Of a stretch of 64,000 bases of DNA, positions 152 to 64,000 are shown piece by piece. The notes under the pieces are model-generated. The model was not told the origin of the DNA, searched no databases, and worked only from the letters and a program-made list of their open reading frames with translations. Source of the DNA: Phyllobates terribilis (taxonomy: Eukaryota). Each line of letters begins with the position of its first letter. Positions within the stretch are counted from its first letter, which is position 1. Made by a program: the position numbers and the translations under genes. The stretch lies in NCBI RefSeq assembly GCF_046119375.1, contig NW_027362762.1:494512001-494576000 (forward strand), given 5' to 3'.

Positions 152-325
152 ACTTTGTGAGAATTTTTTACCAAAATAAATTGATCAATAATTACAGGGA
201 TAAATTTTGCTTTGGTCTACCTAATGGTTCCACACACAACTTTGTGAGATTTTTTTACCAAAATAAATTGATCAATAATAAAAAGGCTAAATTTTACTTT
301 GGTCTGGCTAATATTTCCACACATG
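152..325. repeat. Tandem duplication, ~88-bp unit x2
   Basis: ACTTTGTGAGA(A/T)TTTTTTACCAAAATAAATTGATCAATAAT...TTTGGTCT...TCCACACA occurs twice in tandem; ORF 157..363 shows the repeated FYQNKLINN peptide. Confidence 0.75.
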
Positions 326-902
326 ATTGGCCCAGCAGAGTGTTCACCTTTCTCTGCTTATAAATATCCAAAACAATGGGATACTGCTCATGCCCATATT
401 TATACATTGCCAGTTCTATGATATTATAGAGTCTTTTTTATATTAGAAATTGAAGTTGACCATTCTTAAACATGATGTGGGGCTAGAACAGTCCTGTTTA
501 GTTTCCATGATGCCATTGTAGGATACAGCAGTAATATGTTTTATGCAACCGAATGCAAATGCTGCATTATTACCATAGCCAGCTCAAAATTCATTTGTGA
601 TTTTGAAGAGCAAAGTGATGGATCTTCTGACTATACCAGTTCTGATATAAAGAGGAAAGTATAAGTGAGTTTAAAGTAATATAATGAGATCGTGTCATAC
701 GGGCACTGTTCATAGTTACCTGGCAGGTCCAAAATGGCTACCATGAACAAGCTTGGCGCCAGCTACTCCATTTTCTAACACCCAGGAGTTGCCATGTCCT
801 TCATCCTTTAACACCTATACAGGGATCTGAACTTATATAGGGGTCAACTTGTTGGGCCATGGAGTTAGCTTCTGTTCTGTGGCGCAAATTTGCAAGAAGG
901 AT

Positions 903-1278
903 TGTCAGGTAGCCAGGTCAGAACCAGGAGGTAAAATCAGGGACAAAATCCTACAGCAAGACAGCAAGTGGGAAGTCCAATATCAAGCCAAGGTCCAAGA
1001 ACAGAAAAATTAGGACAAAACGCAAGATCACAGCACAGAAGTATATACCAGAATAACAGAGCTATTGACTTCCAGGGGGAACAGATTCTCAAGGGTATAA
1101 ATAGAAAGCAGCCCCACCCAGTGCTAACAACAGGAAGAAACCCAACCTAACAGAATTAACCCCATAGCTTCTGGACTGACAAGAGCCACAAGTCCCAGGA
1201 ATAAAACAGAGGGACTGAATTCACTCTGTATCAGCCAAGAGCAAAGCAAGAGTAGATGGGACAGGTGCGGAAGTCACA
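903..1278 (-). mobile_element. Possible solo LTR (Gypsy-like)
   Basis: TGTCAGG...GTCACA termini, ~375 bp, composition like frog Gypsy LTRs. Flanks GGAT/GATG do not give a clean TSD. Confidence 0.3.
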
Positions 1279-3961
1279 GATGGCAGATAGTACCAGTTGG
1301 TCAATAAATCTTTTTGGGGCACACCAAATGCTTTGTATTACTTACATAATTACATATTGGGGCCGACTTTCTAAATTTGTTCAAATTTTAGAATATCAAA
1401 ATTTAGAGTAAACAGTCTTAAAATGAGCCAAATTTCTCAGAGTGGTTCATGCTGTTGATATATTTGGTGCTTCTTTTCACTGTCTAGTCTAAGGTTACGC
1501 TGTACAATTTTCAATCATCAAGTTTCATCCATCAGTTGAATTAGATAGACATGTCGTTTTTCAGCAGTACTACGTAAGCATTTGCTGGCCTACATTGCTC
1601 AACTAAGTTACCTTAAATTGTGGTGCAATTTTGGCAATTTTTTGACACACTAAACAGTCATTTAGACCCTGCACACTTTGTCTACCCACTATCCAGATAA
1701 ATTATGCTCTTTATAAGCATGTTAAAAAACTTGTCCATAACACATCGGAAATGTGGTGCAATTCAAATTATTTGGTTCAAATTTAGCCAGAATTCTGGTC
1801 CACGTAGCTGAGGAAATCAACAACTTAGAGGTCAAGGAGACATGTCCATCAAATTTACAAGTTTCAATTTATTTACAATATGGCATAAAATGGCTAAAAC
1901 CTTAGCATAACAAAGGGCAAGAAAAAATGTATGATAAAAGCAATTATCAATAAATAAGATAAATATGCTGTATATTATTGCACATCATAGAAAGCACAAC
2001 CTTTTCAGCTTTCTATAAAGGAAAAACTATGTGATGATGACAAATTATTAATTCAGAAATGGCATTCATCTCATATTGAGATAATGATGAAAGGGAGGAA
2101 ATACCTCTGTCACTTTGTTTGCTGGAGACTACAGGCTTTTGATGTGGTGCAAACTGTCATTGTTTGTCCTGGAGAGACGGTTTGTCACTAGCTGAGATGG
2201 CTTCTAACAGACAAACAAATTTGTTTCTCTGCAGTGTAAATTAGATTTTTAAACCTCACAAGTGTCTCCTTCATGTGTAACTGAGGTGATCCAAAAGCAT
2301 GGTTAACTCAAGTACATCTATTAAACAAGCCTGGTTTGTCGTAGTAAAGTACAACAGCTTCTATGATAAATCTATAGATTTCATAAATCTCAGAGGTCAC
2401 TTAATGCATTTTGAGACTTTGTGGTTTATTTGATTCTCTTCTCCAAAAGCTGATTGAAATTTTATTGATTTGTTGGCGCAGGGCCATGCAGATTGTACGC
2501 CAAGCTCACCATGTCTTTTTAACAGCAAATTAATGTGGTTGGGAATTTAATACCCATATATCAATACACCACAATTTAATTTTAAATATTGTATTATCAG
2601 TGACAATTACAGTTATCACTTGTTCTTGGGATAAAGTTTGATATGACTTTTATACTCTTTATTAAACTTTTTTTTTATGTTTTATTTTAAATTGACCAAC
2701 TAACTTCAAGCAAAGTAGTCAACTTATGTCCGTAGAAGTTTGTATATCAGAATGTATGTTATAGTTTGATCTACTGTATTTATTTCTCAGAAATTAAAAG
2801 TTAGAAACTATGTAAAATATAAAACATTTTATTATATTCTTTTATGATTATAAAATGTTGGCTATCCACACTATTTTCTGTATTTACAGTCAAAATATAA
2901 GAATTGTGATAAAACATAAAAAGATTATGTTCACAATGTTATTTTTACACATAATAAAAGACTTTTCCAACTGATGATGAGCTTATCACTTGTAATCGGT
3001 GGAGGTTGGGGCACTGATTTATTTGATCCCATGCAGTTAGGTGGAAAAATATAATATCCATAGAATTGAATGAGCTATCCTTGTATAGACAATTCAGATA
3101 CTCCAGAGAGATGCTTTTTGCTCTGTTCTACTGCCAAGGCAAAAATTGTCACTATGCTATAACAAAGTTACAACAGGGATACTGAGCCTTGTCGACAGTT
3201 GCTAAATCTCTAAAAATGTCTAGAAGGCTAATGGAAATAGAAATGACCTACTAGACTTTTGGAAGAGTTAGTACATTACCTTGATTCATGCCTAAACCTT
3301 GCAAAACCTCCCGGAACACAGAGCTTTCTGAGCATCCAAACACATATTCAAGATGCAAGCAGCATGACATGGAGAAAGCATTGAAGGGACAACACAAGGA
3401 TAATGGAAGTGTTGTAGGAAATTTTCGGCAACATGCTTCACTTCCTGACATCCCGAAAGGGTAACTCTAAAATTTGGCAATCTTGGCTTTGACTTATTCA
3501 ATTTGATTTGATTCAACCTATCAATTTGGTTCTGATCTATTGGTACTAATCGCAATGTCCACATCATTGACCACGACAGTGAGATTGATTCGAAGCAAGC
3601 AGAATACAAAGTTAGGAAATGTTGACATGGTGATATAAGGAGATGAGTTCTTTAATTGGTGTCTAAAACCCATATCTATTGATAAGTCAGTATAGTACAG
3701 AAAAAGAACTTTGTTTTTCACATTATGAAAACAAATGTGAATATGAATAGAAATATCTCCTTAAAGGTTTTCTTGGATTACAGGGTATATTTTAACTTAA
3801 ATAATAATGTAAAAATAATATTAAATATATCAATCTATTTATCTATCATCTCCTGGATGACACTACCGCATTACGTGCATCAGGTATTCATATGCTTGGA
3901 TAATCGGTCTGTATACACTATTTTTATTATACATGATTTGGTATAATCATGCGCTCTTTAG

Positions 3962-24902: not shown

Positions 24903-26140
24903 AGAGAATCTGTCAGCATAATTTTGGAATGTAAAGTAAAGACATGGCTCTAATGGTGCTGAAAAAACTGAATGAATTGATACCCTTGATGAAGACATTC
25001 ACTTTGTGCTTCTTCTTTTATCATTATGTAAAGCTATCTGCTAATTAGATTTTGGTGCACTAGGGCTGGACTGTGCACTGGGTCTTCTCCTCGCAGTCTG
25101 TGATTCCCCTGCCCCTCGGCATGCCTCCAGTCTGTAAATGACAGGTAACTGCTAAAATATCCAACAGAGGAGGCCCGTCATTTAAAGACCTGAGGCAGGC
25201 GGAGGGATGGGGAATTACAGACCTGAGGCAGGCAGAGGGATGGGGAATTACAGACCTGAGGCAGGCGGAGGGATTGGGAATTACAGACCTGAGGCAGGCG
25301 GAGGGATGGGGAATTACAGACCTGAGGCAGGCAGAGGGATGGGGAATTACAGACCTGAGGCAGGCAGAGGGATGGGGAATTACAGACCTGAGGCAGGCGG
25401 AGGGATTGGGAATTACAGACCTGAGGCAGGCGGAGGGATGGGGAATTACAGACCTGAGGCAGGCGGAGGGATGGGGAATTACAGACCTGAGGCAGGCGGA
25501 GGGATGGGGAATTACAGACCTGAGGCAGGCAGAGGGATGGGGAATTACAGACCTGAGGCAGGCGGAGAGATAGGGAATTACAGACCTGAGGCAGGCGGAG
25601 GGATGGGGAATTAAAGACCTGAGGCAGGCGGAGGGATGGGGAATTACAGACCTGAGGCAGGCAGAGGGATGGGGAATTACAGACCTGAGGCAGGCGGAGG
25701 GATGGGGAATTACAGACCTGAGGCAGGCGGAGGGATGGGGAATTACAGACCTGAGGCAGGCGGAGGGATGGGGAATTACAGACCTGAGGCAGGCAGTGGG
25801 ATGGGGAATTACAGACCTGAGGCAGGCGGAGAGATAGGGAATTACAGACCTGAGGCAGGCAGAGGGATGGGGAATTACAGACCTGAGGCAGGCGGAGGGA
25901 TGGGGAATTACAGACCTGAGGCAGGCGGAGGGATGGGGAATTACTGACTGGAACAAAAAGACCCAGAGTACAGTCCGGCCTCTGTGCATTGAAATCTAAT
26001 TAGAAGAAAACTTCACATGGTGATTAAAAAAGAACAACAAAGTGGATTTCTTCACCAAAGGTATCAATGTAACCAGTCTTACAGCGCCATTAGAGCCATG
26101 TCCTTACTTTACATTACAAAATAGTGCTGACAGGTTCTCT
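24903..26140. mobile_element. T2/Kolobok-type MITE containing a 33-bp minisatellite
   Basis: TIR AGAGAATCTGTCAGCA / TGCTGACAGGTTCTCT; TTAA at 24899-24902 and 26141-26144. Confidence 0.85.
25186..25944. repeat. 33-bp minisatellite, 23 units
   Basis: Unit AGACCTGAGGCAGGCGGAGGGATGGGGAATTAC; 759 bp = 23 x 33, with few variants. Confidence 0.98.
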
Positions 26141-32091: not shown

Positions 32092-33260
32092 TCCCGTATA
32101 CATAAAATAGATGGCAGGTTCAGCTGGAACTTAATTGGTTGGTCTAAATGGGACTGGAATGCTGCAGAAGAAGTATTTAGAAATATTATGTATACTTTTA
32201 ACTATTTGGTTATCTTGTAACTCTTTCAGGAAGGATATTTGCTTCTATACTTTTCTAATTATGCAAACCTTAGCTTTATCCATGTCTATGAACAGATTGC
32301 AAGCATAAAAGAATGCTTAATTTTTACTTCTAGTCCATTTAGAATAGGAAATAGTCACTTTCTTCTTACATGGGAGTATGGGCTAAAGATGAGCTTAATA
32401 CAGTGCTTGTACCGAATACATTAGTTTTCAATACATCCGGCCATAGTGCACCACTGAAGCTGCTTTATGCTGCACTTTTATTAGCTCTTTATATTTATTA
32501 GAATAAAAAATGTAGGCTATGCTAGTGTGTACTAGATGGCAAATTTCTTATGGATATAACGTACTATGTATAAAAATTAAACTATGTACAGAGAGTAACC
32601 ATAATCGCCGCAGTAGTTATACAGGCGAGAGTTATTGCTCCCGTATTTGAGAGTTTCAGCGAGACAATCCTTTCATCAAACATGTACAGCTATTGTTTGT
32701 ATCTAAACTTTTCTTTGATCTACTTTGGAAGCTTGAAAAGTGAATGACCTCTGTGGCACATGATGATGGCAGATTTGAGTGCTATGTAAGAGCTGCAATT
32801 TGGGGACCAAAGTAGTCTCGGCACTTGAGAAATCTATGGCTGTAAGCTGAAGGGTTTGTTTTACAGCAAGCAGCTGGTGAAATAAGAGAGTTTGGAAGAA
32901 TGCGACGTCTTCCAGCACATGCTGTTTCTACCTTCGCTGCTAGTCTGATTGCAAAAACTGTAATCAATAAGTGGCAGGCTGAGATAGACTTTGCTACGAA
33001 GTCCCCACTGCGAGGACGAGCACAAGAGCAGCATTCACTCTGTTATGAGATCCTGGACAAGAGTCAGCTGCTGAGAATCAATAGCGACTCTGAACATGCA
33101 TATTGGATGGATTCAGACTCTCAAAATGCTTACGGATTTCTAGACCCTGCTGGATGAAAATGATGCTGATTTTTAGCAACTTTCTTCATTGCTGTGCCTG
33201 CAAAAGTACAGTCCAACTCAGACATGAGAATTAGTTAAAAAACTGCACCAATATAGCACC

Positions 33261-33612
33261 ACTTGGTGTGAGCTAGGGAAACTGATGAGTAGGGATGAGT
33301 GGACACTTGGTGTGGGCAGGCTAAACTGGTGAGTAGAGATGAGAGGACACTTGGTGTGAGCTGGGTAAACGAGTGAGTAGGGATGAGCAGACACTTGGTG
33401 TGAGGTGGGTAAACTGGTGAGTAAGGATGAGCAGACACTTGGTGTGAGCTGGCTAAACTGGTGAGTAGGGATGAGTGGACACTTGGTGCTAGCTGGCTAA
33501 ACTTGTGAGTAGGGATGAGTGGACACTTGGTGTGAGCTGGCTGAACTGATGAGTAGGGATGAGCGGATACTTGGTGTGAGCTGGCTAAACTGGTGAATAG
33601 AGATGAGCGGAC
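33261..33612. repeat. 44-bp minisatellite, 8 units, derived from a MITE junction
   Basis: Units start exactly every 44 bp (33261, 33305 ... 33569). Consensus ACTTGGTGTGAGCTGGCTAAACTGGTGAGTAGGGATGAG(C/T)GGAC. Confidence 0.95.
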
Positions 33613-33883
33613 CCGTGGAAGTTCGAGTTTTGATACCCAACCAAACTTTAGTCCAAAGTTCGGTTCAGGTGCCAGAACTGTACCAAACTTGAACCTGAAC
33701 CCGGACCCCACTGAAGTCAAAGGGGACCCAGAACTTTGGAGCTGGAAAATCTCTCTCCACCCTCCCCGGACTCATGAACTGTAAAACGGACTTCCAGGAG
33801 AAGTCCATGTTCGGAGTTCAGTACCAGACACTAGATGTCTAGTATTAACCCCGAGCTTTACAATCCAGATTCACTCATCTCTA
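33598..33883. mobile_element. hAT-type MITE (same family as 3962-4247)
   Basis: TAGAGATGAGCGGACC / GATTCACTCATCTCTA; perfect TSD CTGGTGAA at 33590-33597 and 33884-33891. Confidence 0.9.
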
Positions 33884-55065: not shown

Positions 55066-56833
55066 CCGTATTTTTCAGACTATAAGATGCACCGGAACAT
55101 AAGACGCACCTAGGTTTTAGAGGAGGAAAATAAAAAAATAAAAATTTAAGCAAAAAATGTGGTCATGATGCACTTTCAAGGGGGAGGGGGTCTTCTGCTG
55201 ACAATGGTATAGGGGTAATGTCCCCCAATTCTGACAATATCCCCAATCCTGGTACATATTCCGCCCCCCTTCCTTTTATATATGGTTCCCATCCCCATCC
55301 TGGTATGCCTGGCATCCCTCCATCCTGATATGCATGGCACCCCTCATCCTTATTCTGGTATGCATGGCATCCCTCATGCCTATCCTGGTATGCATGGCTC
55401 CCTCATCCTTATCCTGGTATGCATGACACCCCTCATCCACAATCCTGGTATGCATGGCACCCATAATCCCTGTCCCGGTATGCATGGCACCCCTCATCCC
55501 TGTCCTGGTATGCATGGCACCCCTCATCCCTGTCCTGGTATGCATGGCACCTCTAATCCCTGTCCTGGTATGCATGGCACTCCTAATCCCTGTCCTGGTA
55601 TGCATGACACCCCTCATCCCTGTCCTGGTATGCATGGCACCCCTAATCCCTATCCTGGTATGCATGGCACTCCTAATCCCTGTCATGGTATGCAAGCAAC
55701 CCTAATCCCTATCCTGGTATGCATGGCACCCCTAATCCCTGTCCTGGTATGCATGACACCCCTCATCCCTGTCCTGGTATGCATGGCACCCCTAATCCCT
55801 ATCCTGGTATGCATGGCACTCCTAATCCCTGTCCTGGTATGCAAGCAACCCTAATCCCTATCCTGGTTTGCATGGCACCCCTAATCCCTGTCCTGGTATG
55901 CATGGCACCCCTAATCCCTGTCCTGGTATGCATAGCACCCCTCATCCCTGTCCTGGTATGCAGGCACCCCTAATCCCTATCCTGGTATGCATGGCACCCC
56001 TCATCCCTGTCCTGGTATGCATGGCACCCCTAAACACTGTCCTGATATGCTTGGCACCCCTAATCCCTGTCCTGGTATGCTTGGCTCCCCTAATCCCTGT
56101 CCTGTTATGCATGGCACCCCTAATCCCTGTTCTAGTATGCATAGTACCCCTAATCCTCATCAGGCTGCACATTAAAAAAAAATAAACACTCATGCTCACC
56201 TCTCTTCTCTCCTCCAGCGCTGCGTCCGGTCTGTCTGCACTGATCTCTCCATGTGAGCCGCGCATGACGTCACTGCCATGCGCGGCTCACATGGAGAGAT
56301 CAGCTGCCGGAAGTCACTGCTCCCCACGCCGGGTCTGTGTGCGCAGGGAGCAGTGACTTCATTCTCCCTCATAGCCGACACACAGGGGAGCCGCACTGCG
56401 GCTGCTGCTGCCGGCTATCTCCTGTGCTCGCTCATTAAAGGGCATGAATAATCACCCCCTCCCCACGCCCATGGGCGTGGAGAGAGGTTGAATATTCATG
56501 CCCTTTAACAGCGGGCACAGGAGATAGCCGACAGCAGCAGTAGCCGCAGCGCGGCTACACTGTATACCGCTATTAAGGAGCATGAATATTCAGTGCTCCC
56601 CACACCCCATGGGCGTGGGGAGCAATGAATATTCATTTTCTTTTGCAGCGGAGACAGTGTTGGCTGCAGCAGGCGGCTTCTGCTTCCTGTGCCCCGCTCC
56701 TCCACCGATACCACTCCCCCCACACCCCACATTAATATACACCCCCCCCAACATTCAGACTATGAGACGCACCCCCCATTTTCCTCCAAAATTTTGGAGG
56801 AAAAAAGTGCGTCTTATGGTCCGAAAAATACAA
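55066..56833. mobile_element. Tc2/pogo-like non-autonomous element carrying a 30-bp minisatellite
   Basis: TA|CCGTATTTTTCAGACTATAAGATGCAC ... GTGCGTCTTATGGTCCGAAAAATACAA|TA; subterminal ATAAGACGCAC repeats. Confidence 0.8.
55290..56160. repeat. 30-bp minisatellite (~29 units, some 29 bp)
   Basis: Unit GTCCTGGTATGCATGGCACCCCT(A/C)ATCCCT. Confidence 0.95.
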
Positions 56834-58612: not shown

Positions 58613-59209
58613 TAGGGATGATCAAATCTGCCGAAAAATTTAATTCAGTAGATTCACTGGAATTAGGCCTATAAATTCGACTTACATCAAATGTACACCA
58701 TTTCTCGTAATGTCATGACGTTGCATAGTCAATGACTATGACTTACATGTCAAAAGACCATAACTCACATGTCGCATGACTAGGCCTCACATGGCGCATG
58801 ACTATGACTCACATGTCGCATGATTATGACTCACATGTCGCATGACTATGACTCACATGTCGCATGACTATGACTCACATGTCGCGTGGCTAGGCCGCAC
58901 ATGATACCATGACTATGACTCATATGTCACATGACTAGGCCACACATGATGCCATGACTAGGCCTCACTTGATGTCATGAGGACAAGTTAGTGGTAGAGG
59001 CACTGAAGAGTCCTGAAAGATGACTGGAGTCAGAGGGAGCTGTATGGTAGGACAGGAGATTGCTGAAAAGTATTTTTTTTACCCTTTATTGACCCTAAAT
59101 AATAGCCTACCGACTACAATGTTACTGGATTTGTGCAATGCAAATGCAAACTTTTTTTGCGCAACTATATTTCAATTTGATTTGTTTCAATAGGATTCAC
59201 TCATCTCTA
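58613..59209. mobile_element. hAT-type MITE with 22-bp minisatellite
   Basis: TAGGGATGATC / TTCACTCATCTCTA termini; degenerate TSD TAATCAGG / ATATCAAG; CATGACTATGACTCACATGTCG x~11 at 58735-58980. Confidence 0.7.
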
Positions 59210-60227: not shown

Positions 60228-61235
60228 CTGTATGTGCATAGCCCAGACCTGTAAAGAATGTTCCTTTATTTGGTGCTTTGTAGAGAAAATTATATGGTTT
60301 GCAATGAATATACATGATCAATAAGGGGAAAGAAGTGTAAATGAGCATGATATTATCTTCGACTCTTTGGGAACCTGTTAGAATTATTTTTCTACTAAAA
60401 TTATTGGTATAGCTGTATACATTTTAGTACTACAATACAAATGATACCTGTCTTGTAGTACTTAGATGTGCCAAGGCTTAGAAATCAAGCTCTAAAAACA
60501 TATGCAAACTAACCTGAAGGGGCTTTGGGGGCATGTCTCTGCACTCAGAGTATTATGCACACAGTATGGCAACCAAATGATCATAACTGGCTTGTTATAT
60601 GTTCGATCAACACTTCTGATAAAGAACGTTTGTAATAAATTCAGTTTTATAGGTGCACACATGTCTATTTTAGTGCTGTTCAAGTGGAGTTACTTTAATT
60701 AATTAATTCTCTTTGTATACTACACTTAAAACTGTTTTTATTAACAAATGCCAGAATGATGTTATTTCTCCTGGGCATTGGTCCAATGTATTCAGCAAAT
60801 TGAACCTCAGGATTTCTTTTGTCTTTCTGAGCCGATGCCACGAGCTTATAGATATGGTCCAATATACAAAATGAGGGTCACGCCTTATGCAATCTATTCT
60901 GAGTGTTCTGAATCTACCAATATCAAATCATAAATTGCAATATGCATTTATTCTTGGTACAGACTCTGTTTTTTTAGGTTTTCAGTAATGTCTAAATGTA
61001 CTGTAGTGTCCTTAACCAGAGGCGGCATGTTTTAAGAGAATAAAAGAATTGGCTTATGAGTCATGCAAATTTATTATCTACTTCATGAGACAACTCCCAT
61101 AAAACAACATATATTTTTGTCTTTTAATAAAAGTATTTGCAGATTAGTTGTTAGTTTTACTTTATATTTCTGCCCCACAGTCATTGTTTTGGATACTAAA
61201 AAAATTTCAATTAGTCAAACTGCACATCAAGTATA

Positions 61236-61629
61236 CAGTTGAAACCAGAAGTTTACATACACTATATAAAAAGACACATATGCATATTTTTCTCAATATC
61301 TGACGTGAAATCAGAAGAAACTTTTCCCATTTTAGGTCAATTAGGATTACCATAACTTTTAATATTTGCCAAATGCCAGAATAATGAGAGAGAGAATGTT
61401 TTAAGGCATTTTTATTACTTACTGCACAGTCAAAAGTTTACATACATTTCATTAGTATTTGGTACCATTGCCCTTAAACTGAATGACTTGGGTCAAACAT
61501 TTGGGATATCCTTCCACAAGCTTATCACTATAGATAGTCGGAATATGGGCCCAATTTCATTTTAGATATTGAGGAAAACATGCATATATGTCTTTTTATA
61601 TAGTGTATGTAAACTTCTGGCTTCAACTA
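61236..61629. mobile_element. Internally deleted Sleeping-Beauty-like Tc1 element
   Basis: TIR CAGTTGAAACCAGAAGTTTACATACACT at both ends (SB-family CAGTTGAAGTCGGAAGTTTACATACAC type), TA TSDs, only 394 bp. Confidence 0.85.
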
Positions 61630-61744
61630 TATGTCACATGGTCAAAAATGATTACAGAACTTTTTAGTGTTCTCCAAAATGTTAGCAACAAAGGGTAATT
61701 TATCTTGAAACATTAAGTACATTGGTTTTGTGATCACTGCATTC

Positions 61745-62133
61745 TGAGTCTTATATCCTTTGGATTACGATATCGGAGAGAGAGTGAGACACAGGGCAGG
61801 ATGTGTGTCAAACAAGCTCTAAACTTTATTACAAAGCATGGGTTTTATATCCACACTGAAGGCAGGAAACGGATTTACCATATATGGTTTGATTATATAA
61901 TTTTAGCACACAAAGACTAACTTCTATTCTTGTGCTTGTGTTGAAACATTCAATCGGACACATTGAATTAGACACATTAAATCAGATACATTCTGATGAC
62001 TGGCAAGGACGCATTATTGATTCAAGAAGGAACATTCATAGCTGGTGTTTTTTTTTTGACCTAAAGTAACTTTCAGACTTATATAGCATAGATGGGGCTT
62101 TTGACTTGAGGGGCCTCATCTTCTGCTATAACA
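61745..62133 (-). promoter_or_regulatory. ERV 3' LTR
   Basis: Starts TGTTATAGC directly after the PPT; contains TATAAAA followed ~13 nt later by AATAAA. The distal CA end is uncertain (61745 or ~61730). Confidence 0.75.
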
Positions 62134-62153
62134 TTCCATCCTTTTGTTCCTTC
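62134..62153 (-). other. Polypurine tract
   Basis: GAAGGAACAAAAGGATGGAA immediately 5' of the LTR TG. Confidence 0.75.
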
Positions 62154-62158
62154 ATTTA

Positions 62159-62605
62159 TCAATACGAATCTCTATGTTTTCTTTTAGTACAATGCTGAAT
62201 ACACATTAGAAAAAGCTTAAAAACCAAATAAACAAGACACATTAGTAAAACCTGAAAAATCGCTTGCACTATGCCAGCCAACCACCCACCGATACCTTTA
62301 AACCAATTAGCGGGATTTAGAAAGGAAAATCTCTGTGTGGAATTATTGGCCAAAGTATCTGAACAGTTCACCCAAAAGTTTATCTCTTCCCATGAGACTG
62401 GAACAGCGAGAAAGGGTATGCTAGTGGACGTCACAGGGGCATGTGTACATATCCAACAGTTAGCAATGGTCTGGTTTTGCTCTTTTAGTCCGATTAGAGC
62501 AAGATGGTGTCTAATGAATCTATTGTCATCTCCATCCATGGTGCCTAACGTAGTCCATGCTCCTGTGGTCGCAAGGATGCAGGTAAGTATAAACAATGTC
62601 ATCAT
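62159..62605 (-). CDS. env: Internally deleted, in-frame Env (148 aa): signal peptide + SU N-terminus + TM anchor + tail
   Basis: MMTLFILTCILATTGA (signal-like), CWIC at aa 50-53, sequons NQT, NCS, NNS and NST, then FSFLNPANWFKGIGGWLAG, a hydrophobic span and basic tail KRKHRDSY*. The ATG overlaps the pol stop (ATGA). Confidence 0.82.
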   Translation of the reverse strand: MMTLFILTCILATTGAWTTLGTMDGDDNRFIRHHLALIGLKEQNQTIANCWICTHAPVTSTSIPFLAVPVSWEEINFWVNCSDTLANNSTQRFSFLNPANWFKGIGGWLAGIVQAIFQVLLMCLVYLVFKLFLMCIQHCTKRKHRDSY

Positions 62606-64000
62606 TCTTTGTCCACTGGTTCTCCTAGTATCTTTTTGCAATGGGATGCGTGGATCCAGGCCTCTTTTCCCTCTAGCTTAACGGCTGTACTTGTGGTCAG
62701 CAGAACTTGAAAGGGTCCGTCAAACCGTGGATCTAGGCTTTTCCTCACGTGTCTTTTTATAACCACCCAGTCTCCAGGTTGCAGCGTATGGCTGCTAGAG
62801 TCTTGATCTGGATCTGGAAGAGAACTGAAGACATTATCATGTACTTGCTTAATCTTTTTGTGTAAAGTCCTTACGTAGGAACTTAGCACATGGTTGTTCA
62901 TTTCTAATGCTTGCGGATAGAAACACCCTAGGCTGGGTACGTTGCCAAACAATATCTCATATGGAGAGAGTCCAGTCTTTCTATTGGGCGTGTATCTTAC
63001 TGAAAACAGAGCAAGCGGTAAACAGTCCGGCCATGGTTTTCCTGTCTCAGCCATGGCTTTCTGAATTTTTAATTTCAATGTCCCATTCAGTCTTTCCACT
63101 TTACCACTACTTTGTGGGTGATATGGGGTGTGGAATGCTTGTTGAATTCCTAGAGCTGACATGACTTCATTCATTATTTCACCTGTGAAGTGTGTACCTC
63201 TGTCACTCTCAATTACCTCTGGTACCCCATACCTGCAGACCACCTCCGAAAGCAGTTTCTTTGCGGTTGCCGCAGCCGTGGCAATCGGGAAAGCCTCTGG
63301 CCATCCTGAGATCAAATCAATACAGACCAACACATAATCCCATGATCCTGACTTTGGCAGCTGAATATAATCAATTTGCAGTCTCTGGAATGGATAGAGG
63401 GGCCGGGGGGTGTGTTTGGGTGGTGTTTTAACTACTCTACCCTGATTATGTGTAGCACATATCATGCACCCTTGTATCAGGCTTTCAATACAGGTGGAGA
63501 ATCCTGGTGCCACCCAATGTTTCTGCATCACACTCATCACACCCATTTTAGATTGGTGTGTCGGCCCATGTAGTATCTGGGCTGCTGCTGGGTACAGTGC
63601 CCTTGGAAGGCATCATCGTGTCCCTTTCCCCCATACCCCATTTGCTTCATTCAGGCATGCACCTTCCTTTAACCACTTATCAACCTCCTCCTTTTGAGCC
63701 TGAGCCTGCATTTGGGATAAGATGTCCTCCGACACAAAGGGGTTTTTAGGGGCACTTAGCTGACGTACTGTTGACCCTTGTTGCGGCTTACAGGCTGCTG
63801 TTTTTGCCGCTGAATCTGCCATCACGTTACCTCTGCTTACCTGGTCGGTGCGTCTGGTATGTGCTATTACCTTTATGACAGCTACTTGTTTGGGTAGTTG
63901 TAGCGCATCAATTAACTGCTGGACCGCATCAGCATTCTTAATGGGGTGTTCTGCTGCCGTCAGGAAACCTCTTGACTTCCATATTGGACCAAAATCATGC
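62602..64000 (-). pseudogene. pol: ERV pol (RNase H C-terminus + integrase) with one in-frame stop
   Basis: HDFGPIWKSRGFLT...VAVIKVIAH...GNVMADSAAK (RNase H); HGPTH...CMIC (HHCC); LQIDY, ESDRGTHF, GKVERLNGTLK (D,D35E); GPFQV...WIHASHCK. A single TGA at 63613-63615 in the same frame. Confidence 0.93.

Follow-up and report, generated by a model that had tools for sequence, protein, structure and literature searches.

The last 2.3 kb of the window (the whole 64,000-nucleotide stretch of DNA that was analysed) contain the 3′ end of a minus-strand provirus, which runs from the RNase H end of pol through the integrase, a short env reading frame and a purine tract to the LTR (Table 1). The C terminus of the integrase matches the Pfam family MLVIN_C (E 3.6e-18), and this MLV-type end, together with a gamma-type env, makes the provirus by sequence a class I (gamma/epsilon-like) endogenous retrovirus (ERV) whose gag and reverse transcriptase lie beyond the window. 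The initial annotation of this DNA had described an open 148-residue frame in the env position with an ATG overlapping the pol stop, and this description holds: the env ATG shares letters with the TGA stop of the integrase frame.

Table 1. Features of the provirus in the window. Residue numbers are those of the 148-residue env product; P0002 is its long sibling Env, and X4, X5 and X17 are public runs, all described in the text.
Feature	Position	Strand	Basis
RNase H end of pol	63616..64000	-	Pfam search; provirus continues past window edge
In-frame stop breaking pol, this copy	63613..63615	-	ORF translation
Integrase part of pol (rve, MLVIN_C)	62602..63612	-	ORF and Pfam search
Minor splice donor in RNase H region, paired with env acceptor in one contig	63869..63871	-	X4 contig
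Env splice acceptor within integrase gene; next ATG downstream is the env ATG	62813..62815	-	X4 joint 62813-63871
Mini-env ORF, 148 aa and stop	62159..62605	-	ORF; 96% identity to both ends of P0002
Predicted signal peptide, about aa 1-16	62558..62605	-	Hydropathy peak; cleavage site inferred
Retained SU start, aa 17-92, four sequons, three cysteines	62330..62557	-	Alignment to P0002
CWIC (CXXC), aa 50-53, N-terminal as in syncytin-2-type Envs	62447..62458	-	Motif; alignment
Deletion junction; 358 codons missing relative to P0002, 1,054 nt relative to X17 contig	62329..62330	-	Alignment; contig loose ends
Membrane-proximal segment, TM helix and short basic tail, aa 93-148	62159..62329	-	Alignment, hydropathy; only confident part of model
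Purine-rich tract, env stop to LTR	62134..62158	-	Sequence inspection
3′ LTR, 405 nt, TG...CA, AATAAA at 61830	61729..62133	-	Sequence; X5 contig loose end at 61729 is LTR end

We compared seven of 24 listed public runs with the window. X1 and X3 are DNA; X5, X17 and X19 are only presumed to be RNA; X4 comes from organism B and X17 from organism C. Several observations concern the surroundings of the provirus. An X3 contig without differences covers 61603–61765, across the LTR flank, so the insertion site is present in X3, which may be the source sample. An X5 contig carries the 5′ LTR, and its sequence continues past the LTR end at 61729 into what we take to resemble a tRNA-Lys primer binding site. 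Beside the LTR stand inverted repeats of 79 nt (61233–61311 and 61554–61632), which are very deep in all runs and likely a DNA-transposon remnant. Tandem arrays lie at 55338–56172, 25050–26075, 33216–33699 and 58710–58952, with units of 30, 33, 44 and 22 nt, and several of the four are flanked by inverted repeats. Within the provirus family, a 6-nt in-frame length difference in the integrase at 63278 distinguishes sub-lineages.

The short env product (P0001, hereafter the stub) retains the signal peptide, CXXC motif and glycosylation sequons first ascribed to it, with a hydrophobic N terminus, CWIC, and sequons at N44, N80, N87 and N88, the last two of which overlap. CWIC is invariant in all 13 rows of alignment A3, and a third ectodomain cysteine, C81, is also kept. 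Hydropathy supports both the signal peptide and the membrane anchor, the latter as a hydrophobic stretch at about residues 105–135, and a single-sequence structure model has a helix at 98–147. That model is of low confidence (pLDDT 57), being confident in the helix at about 110–140 only, and contains no confident ectodomain fold. Pfam matches to hantavirus and phlebovirus C termini fell below the cut-off and were rejected as caused by the hydrophobic helix. The exact protein is absent from the databases searched, and no second protein fusing a CWIC start to an anchor was found among 56 candidates of similar length or among 49 proteins checked; three short matches among 22 homologues proved to be plain fragments. 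A search of the ESM Atlas returned weak matches only (best 0.80).

A longer Env does exist among the relatives, as had been anticipated. A search for longer proteins gave 10 matches in 348 candidates, every one a frog Env, of which the best was P0002 (XP_073508222.1), a 508-residue protein of the dart frog Phyllobates terribilis that is 96% identical to the stub. Because a profile of 23 relatives matches syncytin-2 (7oix_A, E 1e-22) and syncytin-1, the long sibling family is, on these profile matches, a gamma-type Env whose CXXC is N-terminal; PMC9967133, in its available text, notes this layout in syncytin-2. The long siblings resemble syncytin-2 and PABLB-like Envs in CWIC, an ISD-like segment and CX6CC. 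The stub, in contrast, has no SU/TM cleavage site, for which P0002 has a motif at 310, and lacks the fusion peptide region, the heptads, the ISD and the CX6CC of TM; TLV_coat matches P0002 and not the stub. The proposal that the fusion machinery is gone is thus borne out, and the stub is predicted to be an internally deleted, membrane-anchored and non-fusogenic Env. In a P0002 structure model, likewise of low confidence (54), the deleted part holds all SU strands except the first; a fold search with this model gave nothing at E 0.001 or better, the best match being syncytin-2 at E 0.12. In another dart-frog Env family (P0005, P0014 and P0016), some annotated members are missing part of the TM ectodomain, including CX6CC, and keep the anchor; these losses may be real in-frame deletions or gene-model artefacts.

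The stub corresponds to residues 1–93 and 452–508 of P0002 less two single codons, with the 358 codons for residues 94–451, a loss of 70% of the envelope gene, missing; in stub numbering, residues 1–92 are joined to the last 56. The initial annotation had placed the jump to the membrane-proximal segment near residue 90 (about 62335), at ACACAG/AGATTT, and had read it as a possible splice fixed by reverse transcription. The jump exists, but its position is 62330/62329, where long-env contigs from the runs, including that from X17, depart from the window sequence. The true break therefore follows R92, three bases (one codon) further on, and CAG and AGA both lie 5′ of it. Within the window, the 34-mer across the junction is found a single time.

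Comparing cuts within the R92/F93 codons with T451–F452 of the sibling, we found none that would give a missing segment running from GT to AG: a GT donor is possible at two cuts and an AG acceptor at none, because T451–F452 precede the retained part in P0002, as T-F does in all 10 relatives compared. Where long-env contigs break off from the window sequence in X1, X2 and X3, there is similarly no GT start and no AG end on the env strand, and no letters are shared at the joint. A spliced intron fixed by reverse transcription would have a precedent in the rem-intron proviruses of mouse Mtvs, which also combine an in-frame env deletion with an open frame (PMC11998498, available text), and the frog element does splice elsewhere; the Mtv deletions, however, match a real intron and arise repeatedly, whereas the frog junction is no splice product and appears to stem from a single event. 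A splice origin is refuted by the letters at the junction unless the true parent differed at both ends from all siblings seen, and we regard it as highly improbable. Splicing on the opposite strand was rejected as well, since the window is one base shorter than such splicing would have left it and the opposite strand does not get packaged. Deletions of this kind are usually caused by a non-homologous jump of reverse transcriptase, and the one described here likely arose once in this way, depth and markers (below) pointing to a single origin.

Other env deletions were seen in the DNA runs. An X3 contig exits at 62328, two bases from the junction, into apparent long-env sequence slightly upstream of the anchor, possibly marking a second deletion with a nearly identical 5′ end. 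X1 contains deletions at 62260–62340 (78 nt, depth 179) and 62232–62362 (102 nt, depth 6.9), both net in frame relative to the window and both keeping the TM helix in part or whole, which weakly suggests a preference for retaining frame and anchor.

We then asked of the runs whether the junction is confined to this locus, and it is not. Independent contigs in three of the seven runs cross it, with 62 and 42 letters on the two sides in X2, 33 and 42 in X3, and 38 and 53 in X4 (at least 31 per side), so that the deletion is carried by a lineage. These contigs, found among the pieces listed (32 of 6,142 and 19 of 221), come from three studies under two organism labels and carry different flanking variants. 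The absence of the exact protein from databases would suit an error of assembly or a deletion found at this locus alone, a reading with a negligible chance of being right that the bridging contigs refute. Contig depth, which is not copy number, is 101.6 for the junction contig and 46.7 for the long-env contig in X2, and is 5.6 and 137.7 for the junction contigs of X3 and X4 (organism B), respectively. Long-env and short-env contigs occur together in X2 and X4. The X17 contig (organism C), with 1,054 nt between the two halves, is of the long-env type, the only type among the pieces shown for that run, which is no proof that the junction is absent from it; the contigs shown for X5 are also long-env. 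Neither X1 nor X5 has a bridging piece among the eight listed for each, and the junction lies outside the coverage of X19.

Two markers bear on the share of the short form. At 62309 the X2 junction contig carries a synonymous variant that is absent from the two long-env contigs shown (X2 and X17); this variant accounts for 19,036 of 30,060 depth in the DNA run X3. An extra codon at 62231–62232 is present in P0002 and in the X5 and X17 long-env contigs, and makes up 4% of the depth in X1 and 7–22% in X3. Taken with contig depth and one linking contig, the markers would put the short form at 63% or more, suggesting that it is the majority in organism A DNA. Summed depth across the family is 2,000–27,000 against 8.9 across the LTR flank, a ratio of 230 to 3,000 that is not a copy number; the family likely comprises hundreds of copies.

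Splicing towards env is visible in one run. A single X4 contig skips 62814–63870 with canonical ends on the env strand and a pyrimidine tract at the acceptor, 62813; the env acceptor is used in that run. In X5, a 322-nt skip at 62311–62634 (depth 826) deletes the env start and most of the stub; its ends are not canonical splice ends, and it is unlisted in the two DNA runs.

Variation in env departs from that in pol. This copy differs from the family majority at eight env sites, and seven of these changes are synonymous, where the expected share is 0.22–0.31 (P 0.0001–0.0015). The corresponding pol figure is 6 of 18, as neutral drift predicts (env versus pol, Fisher P 0.03), in an incomplete set (among 40 of 80 variant rows listed) that counts the stop as non-synonymous and omits three of 21 rows for X1/X3 disagreement, a minor allele and a second allele. 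All nine env rows of X3 comprise five synonymous, two missense and two nonsense changes (P 0.03–0.11); without three that come from one contig bearing the long-env marker, five of six are synonymous (P 0.002–0.012). No frameshifting indel at 1% or more was found in X3 over 62215–62475, and the LTR has several indels of 1, 2 or 4 letters. The synonymous differences span 62246–62483 and are bounded by one-codon losses at 62490 and 62231, which this copy and the majority have in common and which are not seen in P0002 or the X5 long-env contigs. Their position between these shared losses argues that the synonymous changes arose after the lineage had formed.

Disrupting alleles also circulate. A nonsense allele at codon 78 makes up 4,724 of 27,876 depth (17%) in X3 and recurs in X2, where its depth of 40.7 is close to that of the long-env contig; it sits at a contig branch point and may belong to short or to long copies. 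A nonsense allele at codon 114 is on a contig of depth 353 that bears the long-env marker codon, and in X4 an insertion of one base at 62209, close to where the helix ends, accounts for 221 of 433 depth. Whether the stub is under selection, in the sense of being retained by the virus lineage, is on this evidence about evenly balanced. The initial annotation had named the virus lineage or the host as keeper; the second half of that suggestion finds no support as co-option at this locus, because this copy has the pol stop and an env missense change of its own.

The explanation we put forward, at roughly even probability, is that a non-splice, in-frame loss of 358 codons gave rise to descendants that are likely the family majority, by depth and markers, and whose non-fusing stub is probably kept by weak selection. 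The predicted product, translated from spliced env RNA, would be a type I glycoprotein in which a signal peptide and a short ectodomain that folds poorly are followed by a TM helix and a tail. With the fusion machinery lost, it would neither mediate cell entry nor incur the cost of fusing host cells, and the env-deleted lineage would multiply either through replication within germ cells or with Env borrowed from the few long-env siblings. In gamma-type Envs the tail makes contact with matrix, and Env gathers where particles bud (PMC9967133, section 3.8, available text). The role that we favour, as a proposal, is that the stub may use its anchor and tail to direct the assembly or trafficking of Gag; the proposal points to these parts because they are intact. 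Env acts in trans, and a stub supplied in this way would let null copies hitch-hike.

A stub that does nothing could accompany the same deletion and the same spread, its frame open by chance, as happens one time in three. The synonymous bias would then come from recombined functional long env or from diversity older than the deletion, and recombination could indeed have brought synonymous variants in from long-env copies, although such import would need close double crossovers between the losses at 62490 and 62231. The stretch of X3 free of frameshifts also sits poorly with an inert stub; the nonsense alleles at codons 78 and 114 and the skip that removes the env start, all at appreciable depth, agree with it, as does the lack of a confident ectodomain fold in the model. 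Amplification without env is, moreover, well documented (PMC4643047), and defective copies spread by complementation (PMC10924933), in the available text of both. We hold this reading plausible, at somewhat below an even chance.

The stub might instead be a decoy that blocks a receptor or uses its free CXXC to poison long Env, and that shields cells from reinfection or fusion to the gain of the element or the host. Truncated Envs with receptor-interference or fusion-blocking roles include Refrex-1, suppressyn and Fv4. Retention of CWIC and C81 is compatible with such a role, as is the co-occurrence of long-env and short-env contigs in two runs. In the low-confidence model, however, the deletion takes both trimer-driving TM heptad helices along with every SU strand except the first; with the folded SU core almost entirely gone, receptor interference is probably unlikely, depending on where in SU this Env family binds its receptor. 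Conservation at a single locus is not seen either, given the pol stop and private env missense of this copy, and we consider a decoy improbable.

Amplifying ERV subfamilies with deleted env are reportedly described by a 'superspreader' model, and the avian EAV-0 is reported to have an in-frame env deletion, which the one paper checked did not confirm. An env-deleted lineage outgrowing its intact siblings is an already known pattern, and the hint of selection on the stub is the less usual part. The bat MLERV1_3 and cat FcERV-gamma6 likewise have one shared env deletion and copy numbers far above those of env-intact siblings, but in the available text of PMC4643047 their envelope domain is wholly lost or neutral, whereas the frog lineage has an open frame, a signal peptide, an anchor, a tail and a synonymous bias. 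SERV-K/MER11 and the bovine ERVK D-type also share internal deletions across many copies spread by complementation; these are class II elements, and the accessible portions of PMC11379458 and PMC10924933 describe no anchored Env stub. The closest architecture is that of Friend SFFV gp55, an in-frame env deletion without a cleavage site that fuses the SU N terminus to the TM C terminus (PMC3185572, in the sections available, as for the statements on gp55 that follow). That virus needs a helper, and gp55, most of which stays in the ER, retains the N-terminal domain of SU, is tailless and signals via EpoR and sf-Stk. The frog stub differs in having only about 75 SU residues, in keeping its tail and in being germline-amplified.

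We found no description of this lineage in the open-access literature; subscription papers and supplements could hold one. The available parts of three amphibian surveys (PMC12690878, bioRxiv 2024.07.05.601823 and bioRxiv 2021.11.23.469661) do not mention a short-env form, and the first of these reports, in its available text, an epsilon-like ERV of Dendrobates whose ORFs are intact and an ERV of a glass frog in which the env ORF measures 350 nt. The term 'miniEnv' in the literature is an unrelated vector name.

A bolder version of the explanation that we put forward, which we judge possible and rather unlikely, is that, in a retrovirus on its way to becoming a genome-bound retrotransposon, env has been pared down to a new accessory membrane protein, held under purifying selection in hundreds of copies and in more than one frog species, which would either steer assembly or guard germ cells from its fusogenic parent. 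In the usual view, ERVs that switch to within-genome copying let env decay. If the stub is neutral, the lineage would be an ordinary amphibian case of env deletion. If the stub is an accessory protein, the lineage would document, in naturally occurring replicates, a stage between infectious and env-less ERVs; and selection on the stub in a very successful lineage would mean that Env may have a role beyond entry, for example in positioning assembly or in restraining the fusogen of the parent.
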